Assembly (NCBI GenBank): GCA_964642015.1
Contig: CAZXLF010000001.1
Span: forward strand, 181,541 to 245,540
DNA: 64,000 nt
Direction of reading: 5' to 3'
DNA from: an uncultured Planctomycetia bacterium
GTDB taxonomy: Bacteria > Omnitrophota > Gorgyraeia > 2-02-FULL-51-18
A program made the translations under genes and the position numbers. This document shows, piece after piece, positions 18,018 through 55,429 of this stretch. The notes below the pieces were generated by a model that was given only the letters and a program-made list of their open reading frames with translations, had not been told where the DNA came from and did no database searches. Position 1 is the first letter of the stretch; each line of letters begins with the position of its first letter.

Positions 18018-18845
18018 ATGACAACGACCCATCATCATAATAAAGAAGTCGTGATCAGCGTTAAGAGCCTCGTGAAGAATTTCGGCGCGCGCAGAATCCT
18101 GAATGATATCAGTCTGGATATTTACCAAGGAGAGACGCTCGTGATCATGGGCGGCTCCGGCTGCGGGAAGAGTACTTTTTTGAGGCATCTGATCGGTTCG
18201 ATACGGCCGGATTCGGGTGAAGTGTGGATGTTCGGGAAAGATATTGCCAAAGCCAGCGATGAGGAAATGGATGAGATCCGCAAGAAGTTTGGAATGCTTT
18301 TCCAATCGGGTGCGTTGTTTGATTCCATGAATGTGGCGGATAATATTGCGTTGCCTCTGAGAGAGCATGCTAAACTGGATGAGAACATCGTCGGCATTAT
18401 CGTTAAGATGAAACTTGAGCTTGTGGGGCTTCGAGGATTCGAAAATTTGATGCCATCCCAACTTTCCGGCGGTATGAAAAAAAGAGTAGGACTTGCACGC
18501 GCAATCGTGATGGATCCCAAGATAGTTTTTTATGATGAACCGACCGCGGGACTTGATCCGGTGATGACCGGAGTGGTCGACAAACTTACGATCGATCTTA
18601 CCAAGAAACTCCAGATCACATCGGTCGTCGTAACCCATGACATGAACAGCGTTTTTCGAATTGCGGACAGGGTTGTTATGCTGCATCAAGGAAATATCAT
18701 GCAGATCGGGACACCCGAAGAGATACAGAATTCCAAGAATCCTTATGTGAGGCAATTTATATCGGGCGATGCGGAAGGGCCGATTTCATTTGTTCAACAG
18801 GGCGATGACTATTTGGAGCATCTGACATCTGAGATCAAGGAATAA
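18018..18845 (+). CDS. mlaF: ABC transporter ATP-binding protein (MlaF-like)
   Basis: Walker A (GGSGCGKST), signature LSGGMKKRVGLAR, and Walker B (VFYDEPTAGLD). Confidence 0.85.
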   Translation: MTTTHHHNKEVVISVKSLVKNFGARRILNDISLDIYQGETLVIMGGSGCGKSTFLRHLIGSIRPDSGEVWMFGKDIAKASDEEMDEIRKKFGMLFQSGALFDSMNVADNIALPLREHAKLDENIVGIIVKMKLELVGLRGFENLMPSQLSGGMKKRVGLARAIVMDPKIVFYDEPTAGLDPVMTGVVDKLTIDLTKKLQITSVVVTHDMNSVFRIADRVVMLHQGNIMQIGTPEEIQNSKNPYVRQFISGDAEGPISFVQQGDDYLEHLTSEIKE

Positions 18846-18877
18846 TAAAATAAGATCATTATCGGAGGCTTAGCGGA

Positions 18878-19582
18878 ATGAAAATTAAAGTGACGAATGA
18901 AGCGAAAACGGGGATCCTGGTGCTGGTGTGTCTGGCGGTATTCGGTGCGCTGATCCTGAAAGTCGGCAATTTTTCATTATTTCAGCATGGATACACCGTG
19001 AAATGTCAGCTTCATTATACGGCAGGCGTCAAGAAGCATGCTCCGGTGCGCCTGTCAGGCGTTGATGTCGGTGAAGTGCAGGATATCCGGATCCTTTATG
19101 ATGATCAGACGACGATTGAGCTGATCCTCTGGCTCCGTGAAGGCGTAAAACTCCGTTTGGATTCCAAGGCTTACGTAACAACTTTGGGCCTGATGGGTGA
19201 GAAATATATCGAAATAAAAGCCGGTACTACCGCCGCCCAATATGCTAAACCAGGAGATCTGATCCCGGGGCAGGATCCTGTCCGGCTTGAAGATCTTATC
19301 GAGACAGCGACCAAGGTGGCCAATGATATCGGCCAGATGGCTAAAGACATTAGCAAAGTGGCCAGTCACGTGGATACGGCGATACAGGACAACAAGCCGA
19401 AGCTTGACCATATCTTCACGAATCTTGAAGATACATCAGAGAATTTCAAGGATTTCAGCCAGGATATTAAATTCCATCCATGGAAGGTCTTGGTGAAGGG
19501 CAAAGAAAAGACAAGAGAAGAAATGGATGAAGAAGACGCCAAACAAAAAGAAGAGCGCGCTAAAAAGCGATCTCGCTCCTAG
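18878..19582 (+). CDS. mlaD: MlaD family / MCE-domain protein
   Basis: N-terminal TM anchor followed by an MCE-fold region, completing mlaEFD. Confidence 0.75.
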   Translation: MKIKVTNEAKTGILVLVCLAVFGALILKVGNFSLFQHGYTVKCQLHYTAGVKKHAPVRLSGVDVGEVQDIRILYDDQTTIELILWLREGVKLRLDSKAYVTTLGLMGEKYIEIKAGTTAAQYAKPGDLIPGQDPVRLEDLIETATKVANDIGQMAKDISKVASHVDTAIQDNKPKLDHIFTNLEDTSENFKDFSQDIKFHPWKVLVKGKEKTREEMDEEDAKQKEERAKKRSRS

Positions 19583-40254: not shown

Positions 40255-41363
40255 TTTCTCCGAAGGAATTCGTCAAAGCCTGCCAATCCAGAGGTTTTTT
40301 ATGTTTTACCGGAGTGCCTTGCTCTTTTTTTCAGGCTGCGATCAATTACGTGATCGATGAGCCGTCACTGGACTACACGATCGTTCCGAACGAAGGTTCC
40401 GCTTTGGCATTGGCTTCTGGCGCTTACTTAGCGGGCAAACCGACCGTATTGATGATACAGAATTCCGGATTTGGAAATCTCGTCAATCCTCTCACATCTT
40501 TGAACATGATCTACAAGATTCCGGTGCTGATCTTTATCAGCGGTCGGGCGTATGGTATTCCTGATGAACCGCAGCATGAGGTTATCGGCAAAACGATGGG
40601 ACCGGTCCTTAAAGCGCTTGGTGTGAAGCATCAGGATATGCCGGATGATTTTTCTTCGTTCGAGGATGCGCTTGATGAAGCAGTGTCTTGGATGAAAAAA
40701 GAGAAACAGCCTTTTATATTTTTTGTGAGAAAGGGCAGCATTGACGATTATTCTCCGGCAAAGCGAAATGGATCCAAATATCCTCTAAAAAGGATCGAGG
40801 CGATCGATATCATATCCAAACATTTAAAAGGCGATGAGTTTGTGATCGCGACGACCGGAAAACCATCACGGGAACTTTTCAGCATTTCTGACCGTAGTAA
40901 AAATTTCTATATGCAGGGTTCGATGGGCCATGCGGCTTCGATAGGCCTGGGTGTTGCGCTTAATTCTCCGAAAAGCAAAGTGATAGTGTTAGATGGTGAT
41001 GGGGCGATCCTGATGCATATGGGAATACTCTCCTCAGTTGGACATTATAAGCCGAAGAATTTTTGTCATATTGTGCTTGATAATGAATCTTATGAGACAA
41101 CCGGCGATCAAGACACCACCTCCTCGACAACTGACCTGAGAGCAGCCGCAAAAGCTTGCGGTTATGCGATCGTTGAAGAAGCCGAGACAGAAAACAGTCT
41201 GAAGATCAAGCTTAAAAGAGTTTTGCAAGCCAAAGGGCCTGCGTTCCTACGCGTTAAGATCAATCGTCAGCCCACTTTAAATATCCCCCGCATTTCGTCC
41301 AAATACACTTCCGAGAATATCGCGGATAACTTCAAAGCGGACCTTGTCCGTTATTCCTCCTGA
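40251..41363 (+). CDS. ppd: phosphonopyruvate decarboxylase (TPP-dependent)
   Basis: 370 aa. N-terminal FLCFTGVPCSF, a TPP-binding GDGA motif (VLDGDGAILMHMG), and an ATGA overlap with pepM. Confidence 0.8.
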   Translation: MISPKEFVKACQSRGFLCFTGVPCSFFQAAINYVIDEPSLDYTIVPNEGSALALASGAYLAGKPTVLMIQNSGFGNLVNPLTSLNMIYKIPVLIFISGRAYGIPDEPQHEVIGKTMGPVLKALGVKHQDMPDDFSSFEDALDEAVSWMKKEKQPFIFFVRKGSIDDYSPAKRNGSKYPLKRIEAIDIISKHLKGDEFVIATTGKPSRELFSISDRSKNFYMQGSMGHAASIGLGVALNSPKSKVIVLDGDGAILMHMGILSSVGHYKPKNFCHIVLDNESYETTGDQDTTSSTTDLRAAAKACGYAIVEEAETENSLKIKLKRVLQAKGPAFLRVKINRQPTLNIPRISSKYTSENIADNFKADLVRYSS

Positions 41364-42145: not shown

Positions 42146-42376
42146 ATGCTGTCTCTTGTATTATCCAGCGCGGTGTTGGGGATAGACGCTTATCCTGTGG
42201 AGATCGAAGTGGATATTTCCAATGGCCTGCCTAAGTTCAATATCGTCGGCCTACCCGACGCAGCCTGCAGCGAAAGCGCAGATCGGGTAAGCGCCGCAAT
42301 AAAGAACAGCGGTTTTCCTCTTCCAGTGAAAAGAATCACCGTGAATCTTGCTCCGGCAGATCTTAAGAAGGAAGGA
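42146..42376 (+). pseudogene. comM: 5' fragment (codons 1-77) of comM/yifB (Mg-chelatase-like AAA+ ATPase), truncated by an insertion
   Basis: The ComM N-terminal Lon-like domain (..[17 protein letters not shown]) is conserved up to codon 77. Beyond that the frame continues as unrelated low-complexity sequence to a stop at 42502. The matching 3' part resumes at 54098. Confidence 0.75.
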
Positions 42377-42502
42377 GCGAGTAGTACAAAGCTCTCCTCG
42401 CCAACAGCACCCACCAAAATCTTGTTCTATCGTACCTGTCTTACGAAAGGAAGGGGCATATTTTACAAGGGCGTCCTTCCGTTCACACTGTCGCCATCCT
42501 GA

Positions 42503-44023
42503 TCAGAAACTGAAGTCCATCTCGAAAACGCCGTCGTTGAATACCCGCAAGACTTTCACGACAGCATTGACCATGTCCCGTTTTTGCTCATCGTTTGCGT
42601 ACTCAAAATTCTTCTCAAATTCACGAGCAAACAATTTGGCCTTATTTACGTCCGTTCTTTTTCTCATAACGTCTTCGATCTCAGCTTCAAGTTCCATAAT
42701 TTCTTGCTCAATACGAAGGCAGTCATCATCGAACTTCTTGATGCGAGCTGTCATTTCCTTGCCGTCAATTTCGCCTTCTTCAAATGATTGCCGCCATTTT
42801 TCCTTGTAACTCTCAACTTTTGACAGGTGTATTTTTCGATCTGCGATCTTCTTCTTCAAATCGTTGGTTTCTTTCAATGAAATCAGACTCATTTTTTCTT
42901 CCAGATACCCTGGTTGACTGACAATCAGCTTCAGATGCTCAATGACCGTAACAAGGTTATTCTGATCAAATTTATCATGACGATGACATTTCTTATGAAC
43001 GCACGCTTTCACGCCTTCCTTACGTCTTCGATTGCATGAATAATACCGCAGGTGGACAGGGGCGTGATGAGCAACCATCGCGGATTCACAGTGTCCGCAG
43101 ATAGCGCGATCTCTGAACAAGAAACCAGGAGACCGAACTGACCAGGCCAGCTTGTGGCCTTGATAATTCGTTTTCAGGAGAACCTGAACGCGGTTGAATG
43201 TTTCTATGTCGATTATGACGTCATGTGTTTGTCTGTCGTAAAGTTTCTTGTGCCGCTTTATGTACATTCTGCCCGTATACAACTGATTCTTGAGGATACG
43301 TCCAATTTGGCGTCGATCCAGTTTGATCGGTGGTTCAATACCTCTTCGTGCAAATTCTTTTTTTGTCTCCAACACCACACGTGAGATGCTTTTGAACTGA
43401 AGGTATGTCTTGAAGATAAAAACAACGATCTCAGCCGCTTCTGGAACAGCAACCAACATATGAGCAACCAATTTGAATCCGAAGGGAGGAGTTCCGCCAA
43501 TCCAGTTGCCATCCCGTTCAACCTTCTTCATTCGCCCGCCCAACAAACGATCTCTTCTTGTAACGTTGTCAAATTCCGCAAATATCGCAAGAAGTGCCAT
43601 GATCATCCGACCGATATGCGATCCTGTATCAAACGGCTCCGTGATGGAGCGGACAACCACACCGTACTGATCAAATTCTTCAATGAGCTTTACAAAATCT
43701 CGTAAACTTCGAGCAAGGCGGTCAATTTTCCATACGACGACCACGGAAACGCGACCCGCTTTGACCTGATGTCTGATATTGGTAAGACCAGGGCGGTCTG
43801 TATTCGTTCCTGTGCTTGCATCGAAAAAAATATCGGTCTCTTTCAATTCTCCATAATCTTGAGACGGCCACCATTTCTGAGCACTCTCTATTTGAACTTC
43901 GCGCGAAACCTTGTCTTCGTTGTCCTGAGGTAATGTGCTTACGCGCGGGTAGAACACGGCTCGCTTGAGAGCGTTCTTTGTACTTTGATTTCCTGCTATC
44001 TGCGGTGTCGCTTGTTTGAACAT
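42503..44023 (-). CDS. large serine recombinase (resolvase catalytic domain + recombinase domain + zinc-ribbon/coiled-coil)
   Basis: N-terminal AVFYPRVSTLPQ with the catalytic Ser context, plus a ...VKAGRVSVVVVWKIDRLARS motif. 506 aa with a C-terminal Cys-rich and coiled-coil region. Confidence 0.85.
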   Translation of the reverse strand: MFKQATPQIAGNQSTKNALKRAVFYPRVSTLPQDNEDKVSREVQIESAQKWWPSQDYGELKETDIFFDASTGTNTDRPGLTNIRHQVKAGRVSVVVVWKIDRLARSLRDFVKLIEEFDQYGVVVRSITEPFDTGSHIGRMIMALLAIFAEFDNVTRRDRLLGGRMKKVERDGNWIGGTPPFGFKLVAHMLVAVPEAAEIVVFIFKTYLQFKSISRVVLETKKEFARRGIEPPIKLDRRQIGRILKNQLYTGRMYIKRHKKLYDRQTHDVIIDIETFNRVQVLLKTNYQGHKLAWSVRSPGFLFRDRAICGHCESAMVAHHAPVHLRYYSCNRRRKEGVKACVHKKCHRHDKFDQNNLVTVIEHLKLIVSQPGYLEEKMSLISLKETNDLKKKIADRKIHLSKVESYKEKWRQSFEEGEIDGKEMTARIKKFDDDCLRIEQEIMELEAEIEDVMRKRTDVNKAKLFAREFEKNFEYANDEQKRDMVNAVVKVLRVFNDGVFEMDFSF

Positions 44024-44229
44024 TTTGGCAGTTCTGTCATTTCGTATTTTCTTTTTCGAGACGCTGTTGGATCACAGCAAGATACATCTGCCAGAAACGA
44101 TTCTCATTCATTGAAGTATCGTTGCCGTTTTTTTGATCCTGTTCTTCGCTGTTCTTTTCATTGTTTTCCATTATGGATACCACCACTTCTGATTCAATGA
44201 CTATCAAATGCTGAAAGGGTTTCGCGTTT

Positions 44230-45084
44230 TCATTTTTCTACTCGTCGATCCTTGCCTTTTACAGAACGAACGTCGCACATACCGACAATTCGACTGCTGA
44301 CGCGTTGGTCATATTGCTCGTCTATTGCCTCAAGTGGGAAGTTGGAAGTGATGATCGTCTGGCGTTCCCATGCCTCGCGTTCGTTGATCAAAAAATAAAT
44401 GCTCTGTTTGACGAAGTCAGTGGCTTTTTCCGTTCCGAGATCATCAATGACCAAATGCGGTACTTCGGCGCACCGTTTCAGGATACGGTAAGCACTTTCT
44501 TCCGATCCGTCCCGCCACGCCTCTTGAAGTTGCATTACAAATGCGGCAAATCCAATAAACCGCCACTGTTTATCGACTGGTTCAACCCTGATCCCGTCTT
44601 GTTCTGCCCAGAAGCGTAGCCATTCCCTGATTACCAGACCCGAAGCGACGCTTTTTCCTGCTCCTGTGCTTCCGTGGAGAAAAAGGCCGCGTGATCCTGG
44701 CCTTCCATATTGAAGTACCCAATCGCTTCCATCGAGCGGCTTGTCATACCTGACAAATGCTTTCGGTACACCGTACCCAGCAAGAAGGGAGGGAATCATC
44801 AAGAGGCGACCCTCTTTTGCTTTTGTAACTGCTTTCTTTTCGCAGTTTTTACACAAACCCTGCTCTGATGGCGGCGGTTCTTGCCGTTTTGCACAATCGC
44901 TACAATTCCACGGTCTTCGTGATCGCTCGAAATTTTGAGTTTCGATCCGCCTGATCGTGTCCTCCAGGTTTCCCTCCACGCTTTCCTCCGCTTGTAAGTT
45001 TGTTGATCTGAGACCAGAAGACTCCGATCGTATAACCTGCTTTTTTGACAAACTCGTCGTCTGAGCCAAAAAATCCAACGGCAT
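44230..45084 (-). CDS. DnaC/IstB-like AAA+ ATPase (helicase-loader-like) with N-terminal Cys4 zinc finger
   Basis: Walker A (GSTGAGKS), Walker B (LVIDDLGTE), and CSDC...CKNC. The 5' 185 bp overlap the upstream initiator ORF, so the true start is probably internal. Confidence 0.6.
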   Translation of the reverse strand: MPLDFLAQTTSLSKKQVIRSESSGLRSTNLQAEESVEGNLEDTIRRIETQNFERSRRPWNCSDCAKRQEPPPSEQGLCKNCEKKAVTKAKEGRLLMIPSLLAGYGVPKAFVRYDKPLDGSDWVLQYGRPGSRGLFLHGSTGAGKSVASGLVIREWLRFWAEQDGIRVEPVDKQWRFIGFAAFVMQLQEAWRDGSEESAYRILKRCAEVPHLVIDDLGTEKATDFVKQSIYFLINEREAWERQTIITSNFPLEAIDEQYDQRVSSRIVGMCDVRSVKGKDRRVEK

Positions 45085-45691
45085 ATTTCTTCAGGTTTTC
45101 TACGTCGAAGGTTCCGATCATCCGCTTGACGGTCGATGCGTCCTTTCCAGTCACCAGATATTTTTGACCGAACCGCGATTGGTACTCTTGAAACCACCAG
45201 TCTATAAAGTCTTTTATTCTTGAATCAGAAGTTGAAATTGAAGTTGAAGGTGAAGATGAATATGAAGGGGGCTTCTCGGAAGTGGGGAGAGTGTTATCCT
45301 TATGCTTATCCTGAAGGTTATCCCTGTGCTTATCCATCAACACGGGATTACCGCCTGTCATGCCGTATTCTTTCTTTCGCTGGCGCATCTCTTCGTCGCG
45401 TAGCATCCGACGGCTGAATAACACGCCCTGTTCGTCTCTTGAGAAGACCTTTTTATTCTCAAGTCCTCTCAAAAGACTCTCACATTGTTTTGCGGATGTT
45501 CCAACCATTCTGGCAAGTTCTCGGAGGGCGGGAGGATGGTCGCCGACAAGCAAATACCCCCTGCGCGGAGACTCGAACATGATCAGTATGATCTCCAGGC
45601 ATAAACCCCTCTCAGCAAGAGAGCAGGCGCGAATGGCTGGGTCTTTCAGCCAGTCTCCTGGGTAAAACTGAAACGCTGGTAACTTGCTCAT
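44900..45691 (-). CDS. putative replication initiation protein (DUF1376-like N-terminus, DnaD-like C-terminal region)
   Basis: N-terminal FQFYPGDWLKD motif, as in the phage/plasmid DUF1376 family. Positioned directly upstream of the DnaC-like gene. Confidence 0.45.
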   Translation of the reverse strand: MSKLPAFQFYPGDWLKDPAIRACSLAERGLCLEIILIMFESPRRGYLLVGDHPPALRELARMVGTSAKQCESLLRGLENKKVFSRDEQGVLFSRRMLRDEEMRQRKKEYGMTGGNPVLMDKHRDNLQDKHKDNTLPTSEKPPSYSSSPSTSISTSDSRIKDFIDWWFQEYQSRFGQKYLVTGKDASTVKRMIGTFDVENLKKYAVGFFGSDDEFVKKAGYTIGVFWSQINKLTSGGKRGGKPGGHDQADRNSKFRAITKTVEL

Positions 45692-46019
45692 TTGAACGCC
45701 CCTTATTTCAAAGCCAACCTTATCGAATAACCACCCAGATCATAGCACATGGTTTTCCGTAACTCGTTTACCTGTAACACCTTATAACAAGGTTTTGCAG
45801 GGTATAACGCCATGTTATTTTTGACTTTTTGTAACCTTCAGTATTTGAACAAGTTACGAAAATCGCGGTTTGTCGAATTACGAGGATTTGGGAGAGAAAA
45901 TTGTTTTTTTGTGCCTCTTGACATGATTTGAAAAACTGCTTTCAGGCGTGAAAAAAAGAGAGGTTTGAATAATTCGAAAAAGGGCTTCGGGGTAAGGGAA
46001 ATTTATCGAGAAGTTTGTT

Positions 46020-46646
46020 TCACAACAAAGGCAGGGCTTTTCGGATGGTCTGGTAAGATACGCGGCCGCTTCTTGGGGCATCCTTGTTATACCTTGTTTC
46101 AAGTTCTCTCAACGGAAGATGTCCGCTGGAAGAAAGGAGAGAGCGGAGTTTTTCAAGATCAACTGGCTTTCGTGGTCGCCCGCCGTGATATTGATGTTTT
46201 GCTTTCTTGATCTGGATTCCCTCGCGCACCCGAACACCGAGCATTTTTGAATAACTGTTCGCCATGTAAGCAAAGACCATCATCAGGATTTCCCACATTG
46301 GCTGATCGGAATCAATGGATTCTTTGAGACTGACAAATCGTGCGCCGTATGTATCGGTGATCCTGTGCAGGTCTGAGACAATCTGTGTTGGCTTCATGCG
46401 TGAAAACCGATCAAGCATATAGACAATGAGAACATTGAACTCTTTCAGGCGTATTCGTTCAAGCATCGATTCAAATATCGGACGCTTTTTGATACGGTAA
46501 GCTGACTCGTACTCAGAGAAAACTTCGTACGCCCAGCCCTGCGCCTGGCAGTATTTCATACAAGCATCAATCTGGCTTTGAACGTCCTGCTTTTCTTCGT
46601 TTGTGGAGCATCGGCAGTAAACAGCGACGTTTATCTTTGAGACCAT
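46020..46646 (-). CDS. small serine recombinase (resolvase/invertase family, N-terminal catalytic domain + C-terminal HTH)
   Basis: VAVYCRCSTNEEKQD...Q with the catalytic Ser, and an LIVYMLDRFSR motif. 208 aa. Confidence 0.85.
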   Translation of the reverse strand: MVSKINVAVYCRCSTNEEKQDVQSQIDACMKYCQAQGWAYEVFSEYESAYRIKKRPIFESMLERIRLKEFNVLIVYMLDRFSRMKPTQIVSDLHRITDTYGARFVSLKESIDSDQPMWEILMMVFAYMANSYSKMLGVRVREGIQIKKAKHQYHGGRPRKPVDLEKLRSLLSSSGHLPLRELETRYNKDAPRSGRVSYQTIRKALPLL

Positions 46647-47812
46647 CTCAATGCCTCCGCTTGATCAAGCTCTCTCAATTTGAATTTTTTGAACATCAAG
46701 TCTTCGATAATTTGCTGAATCTCTGGCCTGATCCGTTCCCACAGTCGCTTATCGTATGGCTGAATCCAGTCGGCGATGATCTCGCCGCCGAGAAGGGCTG
46801 ATTCACCGTGGAACCAGACACTTTGAAGTATCTTTTGGGGTATTTCCCTGTGCCGTGCCAGAAAGAATCGCTCCGCAATGCGGCCAATATGGGTGTGAAA
46901 GTCAATACAGAAGGGGTCTATTTCAGCCAACGGAAGCCGCTGGACGGCGTTTTCATCAATAGAGGGAAGAGTGATACCCTTCAAAGCGTAATCGCCTCGT
47001 TTGTATCTTATTGCGGCTGATAAAAGCAAAGCCGAATCGCTTTCCCAGAAAGTACCACCCACCACGCGATCAAGGCATTGTTTTACAACCGCGTCCTGAT
47101 CGTGTTGGAAAATCTCGTATATCTCCGCGTATCGCTTGTCCTTTGCCAACTTGAAAAGTTGAACCATCACGGCGACGTACTCTTGTTTATCGAGCAGATG
47201 ATATCTCAGCCATGTGGTGTCGGGTACGGTCGTATTTACCTGTGAAGCAAGAAGCCCTTCGGTCAGTTGCCAGCCGAGAGAACAAAGAGTTTTGTCTTTT
47301 GGTGCTTCTGCGATCACCGCCGTTACCTGCAAGAACTCTTTGAGACTCATGCCGTCATGGAAGAATTTCAGAACTTCTACCGCAGAGAAGGCATCCTCAA
47401 CGGCGATTATCTTGAGCCGTCTGATTGCTTGATCCTTACCGAGCAAAAATAGCGTCTTCGCCGCACGCACCGCCTTCTCGACCATCCCGCGCCTGATGTA
47501 TTTTTGAAGAGCCGATTTGTAAAGCCCGACCTTGCCTTGATAATCAAGATAAAATTCGCCAGGCAACTCACCGCTCATAACTCCGACTTCAAGCCAACCA
47601 ATCAATGTGCGCCGATTTTTCGATAACTTTTCAAGTTTGAGCAGGTCTTTCAGGTCTTCCGCTGTTACGCTCTCAATTTTGTCCATCTTGCGAAGCTCTT
47701 CTTGGATTACGGCGATGCTTTTTTTGAGTAGACCTTCCATGTCGTTGATTGTCATCAGACAGTCCTCGTGCGTATATTTGTTTTGATAATAAAAGTGTAT
47801 ACCGCTGATCAT
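46631..47812 (-). CDS. hypothetical protein with a helical domain resembling the MgsA/RarA C-terminal domain, but no ATPase motifs
   Basis: The segment YKSALQKYIRRGMVEKAVRAAKTLFLLGKDQAIRRLKIIAVEDAFS parallels the RarA C-terminal signature (SALQKSIRGSD.DAALYWLARM..GEDP.FIARRL.I.ASEDIG). No Walker A/B anywhere in the 393 aa. Confidence 0.35.
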   Translation of the reverse strand: MISGIHFYYQNKYTHEDCLMTINDMEGLLKKSIAVIQEELRKMDKIESVTAEDLKDLLKLEKLSKNRRTLIGWLEVGVMSGELPGEFYLDYQGKVGLYKSALQKYIRRGMVEKAVRAAKTLFLLGKDQAIRRLKIIAVEDAFSAVEVLKFFHDGMSLKEFLQVTAVIAEAPKDKTLCSLGWQLTEGLLASQVNTTVPDTTWLRYHLLDKQEYVAVMVQLFKLAKDKRYAEIYEIFQHDQDAVVKQCLDRVVGGTFWESDSALLLSAAIRYKRGDYALKGITLPSIDENAVQRLPLAEIDPFCIDFHTHIGRIAERFFLARHREIPQKILQSVWFHGESALLGGEIIADWIQPYDKRLWERIRPEIQQIIEDLMFKKFKLRELDQAEALRWSQR

Positions 47813-47846
47813 CTGATGGAAGGACTGACGGAAAAAATCGGCGAGG

Positions 47847-48359
47847 TTATTTCTTGTTTTCGTACGAAACGAGCACTCTCGGTTTCGCTATGATTTGCTC
47901 TGGGGCAACTTTTGCTATCGGAGGAATTGATTTTGAAACTTCGGCCTTTGGTTCATCGACACTCAACCCGACAGACAATCCGCTGAGTGTTTTCGGACTT
48001 GGATTCAGCGTTGTTCCGCCGCTTGATCGATTGGTTACAAAAGTCTGATGTGTTTCAGTGTCGCCAAGTGGTTTCGCGGAATATTCGATAATCCGTGTTC
48101 CGTCTGGCTTGGTATGGGCGTATGCGGTGTACGTTCCTGGCCGATTATCAATCGGAGCTTGCCAATCCCCATTCACAGGATCAGAAATGCCGTTGGCGAA
48201 GTGTCCGCTTTGGAATTTTTCAACTTGTTGGTTGAACCATGTCTGCGTCTTTTCATCCAGCTTTGGTAAATCGTCTGCCAGTACCAATGAAGACTTGAGA
48301 AGAATGATTGATGCGAAAAGTATTACGCGAAATCGGCTCATGGCAACTCCTTCCATCAA
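47847..48359 (-). CDS. hypothetical secreted protein (signal peptide, Pro/Thr/Ser-rich)
   Basis: N-terminal hydrophobic signal (RFRVILFASIILLKSSLVLA). No family recognised. The start may be the internal ATG (MSRF). Confidence 0.35.
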   Translation of the reverse strand: MMEGVAMSRFRVILFASIILLKSSLVLADDLPKLDEKTQTWFNQQVEKFQSGHFANGISDPVNGDWQAPIDNRPGTYTAYAHTKPDGTRIIEYSAKPLGDTETHQTFVTNRSSGGTTLNPSPKTLSGLSVGLSVDEPKAEVSKSIPPIAKVAPEQIIAKPRVLVSYENKK

Positions 48360-48416
48360 TGTGATGGTTTGATAATAAAAGTATACCGTGAGCTGTTCTG
48401 ACTGCCAGAGGAGGGT

Positions 48417-48821
48417 TTACTTTTTCAGGAAAAACATTACGACGAGCATTATCGCTATGAGCGAAATATAAAAAACGGAGAGCGTCTTTGAAAAAATGGC
48501 GCTCACCCAGCATGATGAATCTTTATTGGCGACGGCTGAAGCATCCATTGAGAAATCGATCTCTTCGATATTTTTTGTCCTCACAACATCGTGCAAATCT
48601 CGGAACATTCTTTCTTGGGAGAGATAAAAGCCATCGAGAATCCAGAAAACGAACACCGCTGCGTATGCGATGATAATGTATTTGTCATTCGCGTCTTTTG
48701 AGGCCAGAGCAAAAAGGGCAGAGACAAGGGTTATGCTCCAACCCTTGATCAAAAAAGAATTACCTGCCATCCTGCTGATTGTTTGCTGAATAAAATCCAG
48801 GTGTTTGAGCTTTCTTTCCAT
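48417..48821 (-). CDS. small 3-TM membrane protein, translationally coupled to the upstream TIR-like gene (candidate membrane effector)
   Basis: 134 aa. Hydrophobic helices at ~28-42, 52-71 and 112-131. Its start codon overlaps the stop of the TIR-like ORF by 1 nt. Confidence 0.5.
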   Translation of the reverse strand: MERKLKHLDFIQQTISRMAGNSFLIKGWSITLVSALFALASKDANDKYIIIAYAAVFVFWILDGFYLSQERMFRDLHDVVRTKNIEEIDFSMDASAVANKDSSCWVSAIFSKTLSVFYISLIAIMLVVMFFLKK

Positions 48822-49309
48822 TATCGCCCTGCCTGTTGAGCGGCTCTTTCGATCCAGTCCGCAAAATAAACATTTCCAGAGTTATTTACCCAGTCATACG
48901 TGGAATAAATTTGTGAAAGCGATACCTGAACGCCATTCCTTGGCATTTGCCAGTTATCAAAAGGATTGCGACCTTGAACATCAGTGCGGCTCCAACGATC
49001 CCTCAAATTGTGAATATGAACTCCAAGAAGCCCATTTCCGCGAACCACGCTTCGTTGAATTTCGTATCCGACGTAAGAGCGTTGGCTCGTTTCTGCGCCA
49101 ATAAGAACAACGGTAACAGAAGTATTTTCCAATTCCCTGTCAATCCAGCGTTTGACAGCATCTTCGCCCTGTCTTTCTACGGCTTCAAAAGCGGCGGCGT
49201 CGTGAAAGCCCGCCGTCTCACGATCCCTTGTAACCCAGGAATTTCGTATCTGGTTTACCCGCCAAACATCTCGTTCATAATGAAAACTGAAAAATACGCG
49301 TCTTGCCAT
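48821..49309 (-). CDS. TIR-like domain protein (ThsB-like, DUF1863/PF08937 family)
   Basis: N-terminal RRVFFSFHYERDVWRVNQIRNSWVT, a central NTSVTVVLIGAETSQRSYVGYEI, a GNGLLGVHIHNL block, and NPFDNW and VYFADW segments. This layout is characteristic of prokaryotic TIR-like (Thoeris ThsB-type) proteins. 162 aa. Confidence 0.65.
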   Translation of the reverse strand: MARRVFFSFHYERDVWRVNQIRNSWVTRDRETAGFHDAAAFEAVERQGEDAVKRWIDRELENTSVTVVLIGAETSQRSYVGYEIQRSVVRGNGLLGVHIHNLRDRWSRTDVQGRNPFDNWQMPRNGVQVSLSQIYSTYDWVNNSGNVYFADWIERAAQQAGR

Positions 49310-49318
49310 AATGTTTCC

Positions 49319-51841
49319 TCAAGCCAAAATCTCGTTGATCTTTTTTTGCCATTCGTCTTCCGATATAATCTCGAAGGAAATTTTCCGTTCGGGCAAAGTG
49401 AAGCCCAATTCAACCCAGCTTCGTTCTTCTGCCAATTTGTTGCATAGAGAAAATACGTCCTGTTTGTATTGAGTGTCCTCGCTACCTTTCAAATGCAATC
49501 CCTTTGTCTCAACAACATACACTTTGTCGAAATCTTTATGACCTTTGGCGTTTGTTTCCGAAAAAATAAAGTCTGGATAAATGCGGTGTTTTCTCCAACC
49601 CTGGATTGCGTAATCCTGACGCGATAAATTTCTATACCACCAGAATAATCGCTCTTGTTCTTCGAGATACCAGGCAACGGATTTTTCGGTCTCATTGAAA
49701 TCATCTTCGGGAACAATTTCAAATAGACTCTTCTCAAGCGCACTGCCATCTTTCCGAGTCAACCGCCTGCTGCTTTTTTTTATTCGCAATTTGGATGGAA
49801 GGCGGTAGCCCTGATCATCTTTCAGCATAAGAAAACGAATTTGTTTTTTTGTTACCAGGTCGGCGAAAACTTGCTGGGAGAGACGATCTTTTTCTTGATC
49901 GGCGATTTTTCTCATTTCCTCAATGATAAATACCAAATTGTTTGCAACCGTTTTGAGGTCATTCTTTTTGATCAACGCTTCAAGTGTTTCCTGTGCTATT
50001 TCATAAGCGATCCAGGGATTTTGAATAATATCGACCAAGTGCCGCGTAACAAAAACAGTGTCAATCGCAAGGCCACCTTCTTTCAAACGCAGAACACCAT
50101 GACTTTCGATGACTTGTTTCTCATCATCACTCAGTCCAACGGCAATTTCTGTGTCCTTTTCTTCAGATGAAGATAATTTGAGTGAACGAGATGGCTTGAA
50201 GTCAGCATCACTCCATTTGATTTGGCTTACAATATCAGTCTCATAACTCAATTTTCTCCAAACCTTACTATCTTCGATTACGAAAACTGGAAGGTAAATC
50301 TGTCCTGCAAATTTTTTGAATTTCTCCCGCAATTCGACAACGCGCTCGCCCTCGGTAGCTTCGCCGCCTTCCATTGAACCATCAGACAATATGCGCCCTG
50401 CGAGATCTCCCAAACCCTCTTGCTCAAAACCATCTTTGACACTTTCAAGAAGTTGCTTCCCGCGCTGTTGGAAACAAAAAACATAACTTTCATCCAGAGC
50501 TTGAATTTTGGTCTTTCGCGCGAAGGGTTGTCGCAAAATTCTGCCAACGAGCTGTGTCATATTATTTTCAGAGGTGGGATTTGTAAGGACAGTCAAAACA
50601 TACGCAAATGAGCAATCCCAACCTTCCTGTAACGCCTGTTTGGTAATGATATATCGGATGTCGCAGGTGGGGGAGAAGAGATCAATGCCTTCAATGTCGT
50701 CTTTTTCGCTACTTTTTATTGCGATTGCTGATTCAGAAATGCCACAAGTTTTTATCAGATATTCTTTGGCGTCTTCCGCGTGAATAAAGCGTCCCCCGCG
50801 TTGATCTTTTCCAGTGCGTTCAACCTGAATCAAACAGATGGGGCGAATATATTCACCCATGTTCGCTTCATATTCTTTCGCCGCCTGTTCGAGAAGATTA
50901 CGTCTCTCAACGCTTGAAAGTAGCGTGTCTTTCCAGTCAACACTCGCCTTGTTGATTACGTGCAAATCGAGCTTGATCATATCTTCTCGTGCAAGCTCCA
51001 CACCTTTTATATCAACAAGAACGTTGCTCCCTCGATTCGGTGTAGCGGAAAGTTCGAGAATCAGGCACGGGTTGAATCCGCGAAGTGTTTTTTGTGCAGT
51101 TTCGCTATATGCCTTGTGTCCCTCATCAAGAATAATGACGGGAGATAGACTGCGTAGCGTGTTGCCCAGCGACGTTTTGATTTGCCTGCCCCAAAACCCT
51201 CCTTCCTTTCCGAATACATCCAAATTGGGAAACTTTTCAAGCAATTTTCGATGGCCTTCCGTATCGTCTTCAGAAGGAAAGAACGCCTGAAATCCGCCGC
51301 TATCTTTGAAAACCTTGAGCGTTTCTTTATTCTGTCTGGATGCCGAAGGAAGCATGAGCATGAGGACAACCAAGTTTTGTGCGACATCAAGAGGAGTAAA
51401 ATGATCCGCTTTCTCAAAGATCAATGTCTGCCCACCGCTTGCGACGTCAAGATGCTGACGGTAAGGATGTTCGCGGTCGCGCAGATGTTGAATTGTCTGA
51501 CGATAAATTTGTGTTGTTGGAACCACCCAAAGAATCAGGCCAGTTCGTTTTTTACGATAATTCGTATTGATGAGGTCTATGCTTTTGACGGCAAGGAGCG
51601 TTTTGCCGCCACCCGTGGGGATTTTCAGGCAGAAATTGGGGAGGTATTCACCAAGACCATTTTTTTTGGACTGGTAAGGAATGTTCCTGACTTTTTCCCA
51701 TGCTTTTCCCGTCCAATCTGGGACAGCATCAAGACCAGCGATTTTTGCAATCTCATCACTCTTTGTTCGCCAATCATATAACGCAGTCAGGTACTTTTTT
51801 ATTTGTTGAAGAGTTTTCTGCTGATATTCTTTGAGTTCCAT
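49319..51841 (-). CDS. res: Type III restriction enzyme Res subunit (SF2 helicase + C-terminal PD-(D/E)XK endonuclease)
   Basis: Walker A (PTGGGKTLLA), DEGH box (VIILDEGHKA), SAT motif (ELSATP), and C-terminal YPDFIF...VVETKG. 840 aa, directly downstream of the mod gene. Confidence 0.85.
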   Translation of the reverse strand: MELKEYQQKTLQQIKKYLTALYDWRTKSDEIAKIAGLDAVPDWTGKAWEKVRNIPYQSKKNGLGEYLPNFCLKIPTGGGKTLLAVKSIDLINTNYRKKRTGLILWVVPTTQIYRQTIQHLRDREHPYRQHLDVASGGQTLIFEKADHFTPLDVAQNLVVLMLMLPSASRQNKETLKVFKDSGGFQAFFPSEDDTEGHRKLLEKFPNLDVFGKEGGFWGRQIKTSLGNTLRSLSPVIILDEGHKAYSETAQKTLRGFNPCLILELSATPNRGSNVLVDIKGVELAREDMIKLDLHVINKASVDWKDTLLSSVERRNLLEQAAKEYEANMGEYIRPICLIQVERTGKDQRGGRFIHAEDAKEYLIKTCGISESAIAIKSSEKDDIEGIDLFSPTCDIRYIITKQALQEGWDCSFAYVLTVLTNPTSENNMTQLVGRILRQPFARKTKIQALDESYVFCFQQRGKQLLESVKDGFEQEGLGDLAGRILSDGSMEGGEATEGERVVELREKFKKFAGQIYLPVFVIEDSKVWRKLSYETDIVSQIKWSDADFKPSRSLKLSSSEEKDTEIAVGLSDDEKQVIESHGVLRLKEGGLAIDTVFVTRHLVDIIQNPWIAYEIAQETLEALIKKNDLKTVANNLVFIIEEMRKIADQEKDRLSQQVFADLVTKKQIRFLMLKDDQGYRLPSKLRIKKSSRRLTRKDGSALEKSLFEIVPEDDFNETEKSVAWYLEEQERLFWWYRNLSRQDYAIQGWRKHRIYPDFIFSETNAKGHKDFDKVYVVETKGLHLKGSEDTQYKQDVFSLCNKLAEERSWVELGFTLPERKISFEIISEDEWQKKINEILA

Positions 51842-51848
51842 TCAATAA

Positions 51849-53531
51849 TCAGTCTGCAAATTTATAAATTTCAAAAGGCAGTTGCGCAAAGTCGATTCGT
51901 AATTCATCCAACATTTCTTGATCAAGGAATTTTGTCGGAGCAAAAACCAAACGACGCTTACCATTATATTTTCCGAGTTTTTTTGCACGATCAAGAGTGA
52001 GGGCCGTGTGCTTCAATGCTTCAATGTCGGGTGTATAAAAAAGGTAGACTTCATGGAATTTTGACTCGCCGACGAATCCCTTTTTCTCATCAACTTCTTT
52101 TTCATCAAATTCTTCACCAGTAGCAGTGTAAAAAAGATAACGCGCAAGTTCTCCGTATGAAGGAAGGTGTTTCCCATCAAGGATTCGTTCCAATTCAATA
52201 GCCCGTCCGAGTTCAAAATAACCAAACGTTTCGCCGAATTTCAAAGCAAGTTTTTGATCTTTATCCGAGCCATTTTTTATAACTCTTTTGACTCTTTCAG
52301 CGGTGATTGAGTCCGCATAATTTTCACACTCAACAAGAATAAACTTCCGCTTCCCTCCGTCAGAACGATTCAGTTCGATCACTGCTTGACCAGTTGTTCC
52401 CGAACCTGCAAACGAATCCAGAACAATCGAATTTTTATCACCTGACAGCAAGACGGCGTGTTTTACCAGATCAACGGGTTTTGGATAATCGAACACTGTT
52501 TTGCCAAACAAATCTTTTATTTGATCTCGTCCCGTTTCATTATTGAACTCAGACCCTTCCCATATAGAAGGAAATAAACGTCCCTTTGAATCGCCATCAG
52601 CATCTTCCGCAAAATCTTTTTGACAGACCTCCCACTCTTCTTCTTGAGTTTCGCGTCTCTTGACTATTTTTGCGATAAGCAAATTACCTTCTTTTTCTAT
52701 CTTTCCTTTGCTCCATCTCCATACGCTATCACTCCCATCAGAAAGTTTTGGAATAACTTTGACAAACCCCTTTTGATTTTCGAGATACACTTTTCCCGTT
52801 TTAGGATCAACAAATAGAGGAAAATGTAAATTTGGTCGGTCTTGTCTACGCGATAGCGCGCCTCTTTTCCTCAAACCCAAAAGTCGGTATCGTTTCCCAT
52901 TTTCAGTCTCAGAGTATTCCGCGAGCTGTTCATCAGTGAGATCGAGACGGCCTGCCTTGAATTTTGAAATATCCTTTACGTACGCAACGAGATACTCATG
53001 TTCCACCGCCAATTCTGTGCCAAGCCTTCTGCCGCGCGGGTTATTCTGAATTACGATTACGCCAAAACGATTTGACTCGTTGAAAATTTCATCACAAAGA
53101 CACAATAAGTTTTTCAATTCGTTGTCATCGATTGAAATAAAAATAATCCCGCTGTCGGAGAGCAGTTCTCTCAAAATTTTCAATCTTGGCATCATCATGC
53201 AGAGCCATTTGTCGTGGCGAGTCAGATCTTCTCGATCAACCACCTTGCCGAGCCATTCTTGCATCATTGGCGAGTTGACATTATCGTTATAAGCCCATTT
53301 TTCATTCCCAGTGTTATACGGCGGATCGATATAAATGCACTTTACTTTCCCAGCGTATGTGGGAAGAAGAGCTTTCAAGGCCTTGAGATTATCGCCGTGA
53401 ATTACGAGATTATCAGTAAGGCGGACTTTATCGGTGAGACTTTTGGATTTCTGCGGAATCAGTTCGTGATATTTGACCGAAAGATGATAATTCTGAACAA
53501 ACGGTTTTCCCTTGAAATTCAAATTTGCCAT
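51849..53531 (-). CDS. mod: Type III R-M system Mod subunit (N6-adenine DNA methyltransferase)
   Basis: DPPY motif IV (IYIDPPYNTGNE) and motif I (SFAGSGTTGQAV). 560 aa. Confidence 0.9.
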   Translation of the reverse strand: MANLNFKGKPFVQNYHLSVKYHELIPQKSKSLTDKVRLTDNLVIHGDNLKALKALLPTYAGKVKCIYIDPPYNTGNEKWAYNDNVNSPMMQEWLGKVVDREDLTRHDKWLCMMMPRLKILRELLSDSGIIFISIDDNELKNLLCLCDEIFNESNRFGVIVIQNNPRGRRLGTELAVEHEYLVAYVKDISKFKAGRLDLTDEQLAEYSETENGKRYRLLGLRKRGALSRRQDRPNLHFPLFVDPKTGKVYLENQKGFVKVIPKLSDGSDSVWRWSKGKIEKEGNLLIAKIVKRRETQEEEWEVCQKDFAEDADGDSKGRLFPSIWEGSEFNNETGRDQIKDLFGKTVFDYPKPVDLVKHAVLLSGDKNSIVLDSFAGSGTTGQAVIELNRSDGGKRKFILVECENYADSITAERVKRVIKNGSDKDQKLALKFGETFGYFELGRAIELERILDGKHLPSYGELARYLFYTATGEEFDEKEVDEKKGFVGESKFHEVYLFYTPDIEALKHTALTLDRAKKLGKYNGKRRLVFAPTKFLDQEMLDELRIDFAQLPFEIYKFAD

Positions 53532-54097
53532 AAGTTTCCATGTAATGGTTTCGTAATGCTATTTCGGCCATTATACCCACGCTTCGTCGTTATATCAACG
53601 AAAGTCAGAATTGACGAAACGTGCTTATTTTTTGGAAACAAGATAAAGAGTTGTTCTGAGCTGTCTGAAATTTGAGGCGAAAAGGTCAGCAACGAAACCT
53701 TTTTCCCGAAAAGGGGAAGTGGGGGGGCGCAAGGCCAAAAATGACCTGCCAATCGGCTATATGCGCTATCAAGGGTCTGCCTGTGATGAGTAAATAACAG
53801 ATGCGTCAATCAGCCGCGTTTTATTATCACCGCCAGACATTGTTTTCGATTTCCATCAGAACCAACTTTTCAACCATAATCAATACGCACCAGAGATTTC
53901 CGCCCGAATCGCCAAACCCTTGTCAGTGACAACGCCTTCTCTTGGAAAACGCTCAAATTCCTGACCTTTTGCTGACAACCTTGATCTGCTGACAACCTGC
54001 GTATTTGGTCTTTTGAAAGCGTACCTTGCCTTTCAAAAAGATGAACCGATTTCTGCAAAGACTCTCCTTTATATATCCTTGTCCTTTCGTGCCAGTC

Positions 54098-55429
54098 TTG
54101 AAAAAGGAGGGCTCTTCGTTCGACCTTGCGATAGCCATCGGGATTTTAGTTGCCAATGAGACTATTACACAAGAACAAGTCGAGAATATTATTTTTTGCG
54201 GCGAACTTTCATTGGATGGCAGACTTCGAGGAGTATCAGGGGTCTTGCCGCGGGCAGTATGGCTTTTATCAAACGAGCCGAAGAAGCGATTCGTGATACC
54301 ATATGATAACGCCAAGGAAGCCTTATGCGCCAGAGGTCTGGATGTCAATCCCGCTAAAAATCTTTCTCAAGTGATCCATTTTCTTAAAGGCGAAGGGGAA
54401 TTATCTCTTAAAACGGATGATCGACCGGAAAATTCAAACGGTAAATTAAAAAGACCTAGAAGATATTTTGATTTCTCTGATATTAAAGGGCAGTGGCATG
54501 CCAAACGCGGTCTTGAGATCGCGGCCGCAGGACAGCACAACGTCCTTTTAATAGGCCCGCCCGGCGCCGGAAAGACAATGTTGGCAAAGCGAATGCCGAC
54601 TATCTTATCGTCGATCACTTTTGATGAAGCGATAGAGACAACAAAGATCCACAGTGTTGCAGGCCTTCTTTTAGAAAAGGCATCACTGATCGAATCAAGG
54701 CCTTTTCGCGATCCGCATCACACGATCTCAAATGCTGCGTTAATAGGCGGCGGTTCATATCCCAAACCAGGAGAAGTCAGCCTTGCTCATAATGGAGTTT
54801 TATTTTTAGATGAATTAGCTGAGTTCAGGCGGGATGTTCTGGAAGTTCTGCGTCAGCCGCTTGAAGAAGGCAAGATCACAATTTCCAGAGCTTCTTCGTC
54901 TTTGACGCTACCGGCACGTTTTATGCTGGTTGCTGCAATGAACCCTTGTCCGTGCGGTTACTTTACGGACCCAAAAAAAGAATGTCATTGCACGCCTATT
55001 CAGATCAAAAACTATATGTCTAAGATCTCAGGGCCCTTGCTCGACCGTATAGACATTCAGCTTGAAGTTCCTTGTCTAAAGGTTGATGAAATAACTTCGA
55101 AAGCTGCGGGAGAGCCATCCTCAGCGATCAGGGAACGCGTTGAAGAAGCGCGCAGCAGACAGCGCAGCCGCTATGCGTCGGAAAAAATATCATCGAATTC
55201 AGAGCTCGAACCTAAGCAAGTTGAAAGGTATTGCGAAGTCTCAAAAGAAGGGGAAGCGCTTCTTAAAATGGCCATCCAGGAACTTGGGTTTTCGGCACGT
55301 GCTTATCACAAAGCATTGAAAGTTGCTCGCACTATAGCTGATCTAGAAGGATCAGAATGCATTCACCAAACGCATATCACAGAATCTATCCATTACCGTG
55401 CGTTGGATCGTAACGCATGGTTTAAATAA
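54098..55429 (+). pseudogene. comM: 3' portion of comM/yifB (AAA+ Mg-chelatase-like ATPase, codons ~73 to end), separated from its 5' part by the island
   Basis: LKKEGSSFDLAIAIGIL continues the ComM N-domain exactly where the 5' fragment diverges. Walker A (GPPGAGKTMLAKR), Walker B (VLFLDELAEF), and the C-terminal Mg-chelatase ChlI-like domain. An upstream in-frame ATG at 54026 may allow expression of a truncated product. Confidence 0.75.

Follow-up and report, generated by a model that had tools for sequence, protein, structure and literature searches.

A probable serine-recombinase integrative island with defence cargo splits comM in an uncultured Omnitrophota bacterium

The window analysed here comprises 64,000 nucleotides from an uncultured bacterium of the phylum Omnitrophota (NCBI GenBank assembly GCA_964642015.1, contig CAZXLF010000001.1, positions 181,541 to 245,540 of the forward strand), in which the gene comM (yifB) is split by an island of about 11.7 kb. 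On the plus strand, the 5' part of comM occupies positions 42146-42375 (codons 1-77) and the 3' part positions 54112-55429 (codon 78 to stop), the gene being broken after codon 77 at Glu76-Gly77. All credible island genes are encoded on the minus strand, as deduced from the map of open reading frames (ORFs) and from independent gene calls on two further contigs (L088 and L089). They include a large serine recombinase (LSR) just inside the left junction, a small serine recombinase with a conserved partner gene, and a set of defence genes. The locus is very likely an integrative island that was inserted into comM by its own LSR via site-specific recombination between attP and attB, and that carries defence genes as cargo.

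The split comM gene and the island junctions

The ORF at 42146-42502 encodes 118 amino acids, namely ComM residues 1-77 followed by 41 unrelated read-through residues up to the stop at 42502, in agreement with a preliminary description of this DNA. This N-terminal fragment covers positions 1-60 of the Pfam ChlI profile only. The remainder of the protein, previously reported to resume at 54098, is contained in an ORF of 467 amino acids at 54026-55429, which shows the ComM sequence VLKKEGSSFDLAIAIGIL from 54098 (residue 24 onward) and for which the gene caller selected an island-derived ATG at 54041 as start (P0001). Alignment with orthologues refined the point of resumption to codon 78 at 54112. 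The C-terminal fragment matches ChlI 52-121, Mg_chelatase 1-205 and Mg_chelatase_C 1-94, and both fragments combined cover ChlI 1-121, Mg_chelatase 1-205/207 and Mg_chelatase_C 1-94/94, representing the complete ComM/YifB domain set.

The rejoined ComM protein has 515 amino acids and yielded thousands of ComM/YifB protein matches. Its best intact orthologues (513-520 amino acids) originate from Candidatus Omnitrophota and share 75-85% identity with the joined protein at 100% coverage. The alignment is gapless across the junction, the C-terminal fragment running contiguously with full-length ComM past residue 77. Moreover, both fragments are free of stops and frameshifts, and all residues that are invariant among the orthologues are retained. 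Uninterrupted comM genes were found in related genomes. The contig encoding P0002, an intact ComM at 85% identity, as well as locus L002 (GCA_900218045.1) show the same order of SpoVG, YraN, ComM and Sortilin/Vps10-like genes as the window, with comM intact. Because the break falls within the N-terminal ChlI/Lon-like domain, ComM was very probably inactivated in the carrier, and a functional protein after the insertion is very unlikely.

In order to place the junctions, the empty-site DNA of L002 was aligned to both ends of the island. At the left junction, homology to comM extends through GATCTTAAGAAGGAAGG, the GG of which corresponds to positions 42374-42375, and breaks at AGCGAGTAG. The corresponding site attL (42344-42417, plus strand; unit a in the following) is composed of the comM B arm AATCTTGCTCCGGCAGATCTTAAGAAGGAAGG and the P' arm AGCGAGTAGTACAAAGCTCTCC, the latter being kept in the related elements L003, L004, L006 and L010. 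At the right junction, CAGTCTTGAAAAAGGAGGG is followed by CTCTTCG, with the GG at 54110-54111, and comM homology resumes behind GGAGGG with CTCTTCGTTCGACC. In attR (54072-54145, plus strand), the P arm ATCCTTGTCCTTTCGTGCCAGTCTTGAAAAAGGAGGG is joined to the comM B' arm CTCTTCGTTCGACCTTGCG. Common to both junctions is only AA.AAGGA.GG, and homology to comM stops directly after the GG. The duplication of the LKKEG codons that had been noticed at the two junctions is real but imperfect: it comes down to an AAGGA/GG core instead of a 12-bp duplication, and the similarity reflects resemblance of the P arm to the B arm rather than identity over a long core. Target-site duplications, including one of 5 bp, were not found at the junctions beyond the shared core of 2-5 nt.

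Because all comM B arms compared (5/5) have GAA as Glu76 codon and attR of the window has GAG, the GG of the Gly77 codon would be the most parsimonious and likeliest crossover dinucleotide. In serine integrase systems, identity between attP and attB is limited to a few bases around the 2-bp crossover, and the short identity at both junctions fits an LSR site. Dyad symmetry was left out of the crossover placement since no convincing centre was obtained for the reconstructed attB and attP, the best attB score merely reflecting an AGATCT palindrome. Furthermore, P-type arms place the outer CTTG motif approximately 5 bp farther from the crossover than the B arm of the window does; since the B-arm motif belongs to coding sequence and differs from host to host, this shift is only suggestive. 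With the GG taken as crossover, the island would extend from 42376 to 54111 and comprise 11,736 bp, consistent with the size estimated before.

The two compositional measures that had been put forward for comparison gave different results. The strand-symmetrised tetranucleotide profile of the island has an L1 distance of 0.234 to the rest of the window, as compared to 0.103 ± 0.009 (maximum 0.121) for host segments of island size (n = 41), whereas GC contents are nearly equal (0.446 for the island, 0.456 for the host). Assembly of the locus is supported by the Logan contigs L088 and L089 originating from another run (SRR12313480), which cross attL and attR at 100% and 99.99% identity to the window. 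A further Logan contig, L001 (run SRR12313477), is identical to the left flank and ends at 42349, 27 bp before attL; this end is too far upstream to represent a branch point between attB and attL and may be due to a variant or to low coverage.

The large serine recombinase, its relatives and the attP-like sites

The LSR gene (42503-44023, minus strand; 506 amino acids) is located 127 bp inside attL, one base pair more than initially counted. The encoded protein combines the Resolvase (PF00239, 4.6e-28, residues 22-170), Recombinase (PF07508, 1.5e-8) and zinc-ribbon (Zn_ribbon_recom, PF13408, 1.4e-6) domains, features the catalytic RVS29T motif and matches the integrase family phrog_95 over residues 6-499 (3e-88). 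In the alignment of its clade, residues Y25, R27, S29, Q33, D101, R102 and R105 are invariant. Named NCBIfam models (XisF and CcrA/B/C) stayed far under their cutoffs, XisF being the best of them with 128 vs 375 bits. A search of 5.8 billion proteins retrieved seven relatives at 60-89% identity, the next match having 28%, and a scan of JGI data added the clade members L008 (82%) and L009/L010 (60%). Clade members were found neither in GTDB species representatives nor in IMG/VR, and the best integrases of cultured phages are 24-25% identical. Judged by its sequence, the LSR is predicted to catalyse integration by attP x attB recombination.

Directly upstream of the LSR gene, an ORF of 44 amino acids (44037-44171, minus strand; MENNEKNSEEQDQKNGNDTSMNENRFWQMYLAVIQQRLEKENTK) featuring the motif NExRFWxxYLAVIQQR was observed. 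It is kept upstream of six LSRs of the clade (window, L003, L004, L006, L008 and L010), and its nucleotide identity to the L008 copy amounts to 92.6%, as compared to 81% for the LSR gene. Excision by serine integrases requires a recombination directionality factor (RDF). By its position, the 44-aa ORF is a possible candidate for an RDF or another directionality or accessory factor.

All interrupted comM copies found in other genomes contain an element with a related LSR. In L003 (LSR 90%, more precisely 89.7%, identical to that of the window) and in L006/L090-92 (about 67-74%), the LSR gene lies beside a truncated ChlI fragment and YraN, in the latter group also with SpoVG. L009/L010 (60%) represent another host with other synteny, in which the comM fragment ends with NLAPADIKKEG followed by ASNTKL. 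In L004 (66%), two cargo genes, encoding a Na+/H+ exchanger and a cation-efflux protein, are located between the LSR gene and the att region, the junction again being CTCAAGAAAGAAGG followed by GGTGAGTTTTACAAGCTCC. The five diverged elements (window, L003, L004, L006/L090-92 and L009/L010) thus reside in five host backgrounds, all at Glu76-Gly77 of comM. All five junctions break after GAAGG and continue with the common P' arm RSYRAGTWWTACAAAGCT. Altogether, these elements constitute a small, Omnitrophota-restricted family that shares the LSR, the 44-aa ORF, an attP-like array as well as a 374-aa protein together with a small serine recombinase.

Further gene content was recorded for these relatives. 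A third gene of serine-recombinase type, encoding 140-220 amino acids with a resolvase catalytic domain, is situated just upstream of the LSR gene in L003 (341-829), L005 (9052-9474), L006 (8644-9306) and L010 (177-671). The island in the window is devoid of this gene and features the DnaC-like and replisome-organiser-like genes at that position. The L090 island exceeds 18 kb and encodes an 816-aa methyltransferase, a Pol-beta-like nucleotidyltransferase, ParB, a SEC-C-motif protein and its own SpoVG paralogue (86 amino acids, 12317-12577); two genes separate this island from the spoVG gene of the host (92 amino acids, 18661-18939).

Next to attL, the island contains a second, internal attP-like copy (unit b, 42418-42495, plus strand; AATCTTGTTCTATCGTACCTGTCTTACGAAAGGAAGG followed by GGCATATTTTACAAGGGCG), which represents a diverged full site 79 bp inward of attL. 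Between its left arm and the P arm of attR, the alignment is gapless (CTTGTTCTATCGTACCTGTCTTACGAAAGGAAGG in unit b vs CTTGTCCTTTCGTGCCAGTCTTGAAAAAGGAGGG in attR), and the spacing between the outer P-arm motif and the core motif is 19 nt at both sites. Within the 64-kb window, the outer motif was detected at unit b and attR only (2 found, 0.04 expected), using a degenerate pattern that was partly informed by these sites themselves; the exact motif derived from L010 with up to two mismatches (<=2) again singled out the same two sites. Extra attP-like sites, one or two per element, are present in every clade member between attL and the LSR gene at a spacing of 67-79 bp. Unit b occurs in all relatives and a third unit (c) in L003 and L004. 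The arrays are located at approximately 2700-2850 in L003, 13570-13760 (minus strand) in L004, approximately 11760-11870 in L006 and approximately 2600-2760 in L010.

Across the elements, the P' arms of unit a share TACAAAGCTC, whereas those of unit b resemble one another instead (L006 vs L010, 32/34 positions). Since the arms of unit a and of unit b are each orthologous across elements with LSRs just 60-67% identical, the duplication of the site is older than the divergence of the clade and travels with the element. All five integrations used the outermost unit. It is doubtful that the tandem array contributes functionally to recombination; it might provide accessory sites that bind the recombinase and control synapsis or directionality in a res-like manner, or alternative attP sites accommodating more comM alleles, and may also be a tolerated relic. 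In the literature, no description of tandem or accessory attP sites was found for serine integrases.

Defence cargo and conserved core genes

In the preliminary description, the cargo was regarded as a compact defence and replication set devoid of phage structural genes. The defence genes were corroborated. At the right end of the island, a Type III methyltransferase gene mod (51849-53531, minus strand; 560 amino acids) is followed by the gene for the Res subunit (49319-51841, minus strand; 840 amino acids). Mod matches N6_N4_Mtase and MTase_III (1.8e-138; full-length model 5.9e-129) and Res matches ResIII and REase_III (2.7e-188); both subunits are adjacent and near full-length, as is characteristic of a Type III restriction-modification system. 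Upstream of mod, a putative strong sigma-70-like promoter (53570-53598, minus strand; TTGATA-17-TATAAT) was recognized by its match to the consensus at 11/12 positions.

Furthermore, a pair of genes encoding a ThsB-like TIR protein (48821-49309, minus strand; 162 amino acids; ThsB_TIR 2.7e-25, ThsB 9.9e-65, PDC-M50B 5.1e-61) and a small membrane protein as TIR partner (48417-48821, minus strand; 134 amino acids; PDC-M50A 5.5e-51, phrog_19896) matches the two components B and A of the PADLOC candidate system PDC-M50. An assignment to Thoeris was rejected, as a ThsA match is missing from the island despite the presence of the ThsB-like TIR protein. The adjoining gene (47847-48341, minus strand) encodes 164 amino acids with a hydrophobic N-terminus and has no family match.

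The replication part of the earlier claim comes down to a DnaC/IstB-like AAA+ ATPase resembling helicase loaders (44230-44799, minus strand; 189 amino acids as called in L088; phrog_50, 2e-31) and a 263-aa protein (44900-45691, minus strand) that weakly matches a phage replisome organiser (phrog_13246, 2.8e-5) and has no match among Pfam or NCBIfam families. Two conserved genes had not been mentioned. The first encodes a small serine recombinase of the resolvase/invertase type (46020-46646, minus strand; 208 amino acids), which is kept in related elements as the partner of the second, a 374-aa all-helical protein (46631-47755, minus strand), part of which is similar to the C-terminal domain of MgsA/RarA. 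Among 5.8 billion sequences, only 15 belong to the family of the 374-aa protein. As a two-gene module, in which the stop of the gene for the 364-377-aa protein overlaps the start of the gene for the 208-aa recombinase, the pair is located at 46020-47755 (minus strand) in the window, 4911-6793 in L004, 3762-5671 in L005 and 10001-11745 in L090.

Between the small recombinase gene and the 263-aa gene, a non-coding gap of 330 bp is located. A 23-nt inverted repeat (45770-45792 and 46082-46104, 78% complementary) brackets this gap and the 3' end of the small recombinase gene. A possible invertible segment at 45770-46104 was considered and rejected, since the island has a dozen further pairs of chance-level quality that are at least as good. 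Small ORFs within the non-coding stretches 45692-46019 and 53532-54097 contain no domains, and an Rfam scan of the region gave no match. With respect to mobility functions, phage structural and packaging genes (capsid, terminase, portal, tail, lysis) were not detected by PHROG or Pfam matches for any island ORF, conjugation genes (relaxase, coupling protein, type IV secretion) are missing according to Pfam and NCBIfam, and family scans of the island revealed no transposase genes including TnsA/B/C/TniQ-like ones.

Origin of the island and relation to known systems

Under the proposed mechanism, the island's own LSR would recombine attP with attB, the latter lying where comM encodes its near-invariant motif LKKEG (Glu76/Gly77), with the crossover presumably at the GG of the Gly77 codon. 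Insertion splits the ChlI domain and thereby very probably inactivates ComM. The excised circle may be able to replicate, as suggested by the DnaC-like and replisome-organiser-like genes in the cargo. Moreover, judging from AbaR and further elements that target comM, loss of ComM would lower curing of the island from the host by transformation.

Several observations weigh against this interpretation or restrict parts of it. Neither an empty site (attB) of the same species nor an excised circle (attP) was found in the assemblies searched, which limits the claims on island activity and on the exact crossover, and look-ups of exact proteins (flanking genes, LSR and ComM C-terminal fragment) returned integrated copies only, plus the short contig L001. 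An RDF was not identified by homology in family scans of the island. The location in comM applies to 5/6 evaluable elements and not to all, because the contig of L005 (LSR 63%) ends within a GmrSD gene before any att site. Likewise, the P arm is known from one element and the internal unit b copies, since a second complete island with attR was not recovered; the 70-kb contig L090 was extended by 6 kb and attR was still unreached. Concerning the gene content, the replisome-organiser match is weak, and the RarA-C similarity spans only about one third of the 374-aa protein. Finally, protection from curing is plausible here, the selective meaning of comM loss depending on natural competence in Omnitrophota.

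An unlikely alternative is that the element represents a degraded prophage or a helper-dependent phage satellite resembling phage-inducible chromosomal islands (PICI-like) rather than an autonomous plasmid-like integrative island. Several of its core genes match phage families (the phrog_95 integrase, DnaC-like loader, replisome organiser and phrog_19896), relatives encode a cI/LexA-like S24 repressor, helix-turn-helix regulators and ParB, and 11.7 kb is a small size typical of satellites. Against this, genes for capsid, terminase, portal, tail, packaging or interference functions were not detected in the family members examined, and the LSR clade is absent from IMG/VR and cultured phages.

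With still lower probability, the island acts as a reversible switch in the sense of active lysogeny or developmental excision, as known for Listeria phi10403S in comK, skin and SPbeta of B. subtilis and the Anabaena fdxN element (XisF), in which the LSR and an RDF would excise the island under some condition and restore a functional comM; this would be an addition to the integrative origin and not a replacement for it. The undamaged comM fragments of the window and the intact LSR are in line with such a switch, the conserved small ORF adjoining the LSR gene could encode the RDF, and the best named model for the LSR, though far under its cutoff, is that of XisF. However, an excised or empty form is absent from all assemblies of the same organism, and a recent insertion explains the intact fragments equally well. 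Moreover, the N-terminal comM fragment of L004 (13760-13990, minus strand) has an in-frame TGA (KEARE*VRAAILNS, apparently CGA to TGA), which suggests pseudogene decay of comM after insertion in that lineage.

The shared break point in several Omnitrophota genomes could also originate from one ancestral interruption of comM with vertical inheritance of the insert, an explanation that is refuted, among other findings, by the intact comM which the closest relatives carry in identical gene order. Empty-site host L002 (YraN 74.4% and ComM-N 88.3% identical to the window) is closer than the carriers L003 (LSR 89.7%, YraN 63.4%, ComM-N 77.9%) or L006 (LSR 67.4%, ComM-N 84.4%). Cargo is completely different between carriers, and host synteny differs as well. 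Because LSR and host divergences are incongruent and cargo differs completely, the insertions are independent and site-specific, belong to an element family that moves horizontally, and do not represent an ancient split gene. It is equally improbable that the locus is an assembly chimera or arose by another mechanism with the LSR as passenger, such as Tn7-like transposition, of which comM is the classic Tn6022/AbaR target (PMC11406308), since both junctions are reproduced by independent assemblies, transposase genes of the TnsA/B/C/TniQ type or others and target-site duplications past the shared core are missing, AbaR sites lie in the Mg-chelatase domain (PMC11472951) and not in the ChlI domain, and junction-proximal sequences co-vary with the LSR clade.

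Probable integration of the island by its LSR places it beside other gene-disrupting elements moved by such recombinases, namely Listeria A118/phi10403S in comK, the Bacillus subtilis elements SPbeta (SprA) in spsM and skin (SpoIVCA) in sigK, and the Anabaena fdxN element (XisF). Like these, the island has an LSR of Resolvase, Recombinase and zinc-ribbon architecture at one element end, an insertion within conserved coding sequence and putative att sites of very short identity; in common with the Listeria comK elements, its target is a competence-related gene. The island differs in that its LSR is only 24-28% identical to any characterised LSR, the target is comM, the host belongs to an uncultured phylum, phage genes are missing and a tandem attP-like array is present. 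It also resembles SCCmec, which is moved by CcrA/B/C, in being a small, non-conjugative, non-phage island with an LSR, accessory cargo and one conserved chromosomal gene as target. In contrast to the island, SCC enters rlmH at its 3' end and leaves this gene active, and the Ccr models are far under their cutoffs for the LSR described here.

The statement that comM is an integration hotspot is borne out by the literature (PMC4774983, PMC11472951, PMC11406308, PMC12378983). For Proteobacteria, there is ample documentation of mobile elements disrupting comM, which was interpreted as shielding from transformation-mediated curing (PMC4774983, PMC11441513, PMC11472951, PMC12378983), and comM serves as att site for Tn6022/AbaR and CRISPR-associated transposons (CASTs) of type I-B1 (PMC11406308). 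Proteobacterial elements targeting comM comprise AbaR/Tn6022, type I-B1 CASTs and integrase islands, often with defence cargo; CF65_00446-type integrase islands occur in Aggregatibacter, Mannheimia, Francisella and Pseudomonas, and a 95-kb island in A. ferrooxidans (PMC11472951, PMC4774983, PMC11406308, PMC10322971, PMC12378983). Target gene and presumed pay-off, namely loss of ComM-dependent recombination and protection of the element, are the same as for the island. The machinery differs, being an LSR here as compared to transposition guided by TniQ or by crRNA, or integrases of another kind, in those elements, as do the host phylum and the insertion site, which is codon 77 in the ChlI domain here and lies in the Mg-chelatase domain for AbaR. 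The hallmarks of AbaR/Tn6022 (TniA/TniB/TniC, TniQ and a 5-bp target duplication) are missing from the island.

A report of an LSR or other serine recombinase integrating at comM was not found in the literature. Insertion of islands into comM and gene disruption by LSRs are each known, and their combination, the host phylum, the element family and the tandem array are new. The island does not overturn current understanding. It extends comM targeting, documented in Proteobacteria with other machineries, to Omnitrophota and LSRs, adds a further case of convergent targeting of the ComM helicase and favours the view that mobile elements profit from disabling ComM. Moreover, it provides a well-delimited natural pair of attB and attP for an LSR clade that is deeply divergent (<=28% identity to others), which is useful for mining integrases for genome engineering, and delimits a small family of elements with interchangeable defence cargo and a conserved core that is still uncharacterised.

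Outside the island, a phosphonate-biosynthesis pair is located just upstream of SpoVG-YraN-comM at 38563-41363. Its first gene encodes a fusion (563 amino acids) of a phosphoenolpyruvate phosphomutase with a MobA-like nucleotidyltransferase domain, and its second a thiamine-pyrophosphate-dependent enzyme (370 amino acids) consistent with phosphonopyruvate decarboxylase. Downstream, at approximately 57.6-63 kb, polysaccharide-export genes (Wzz, Poly_export) were identified in the gene calls of L089.

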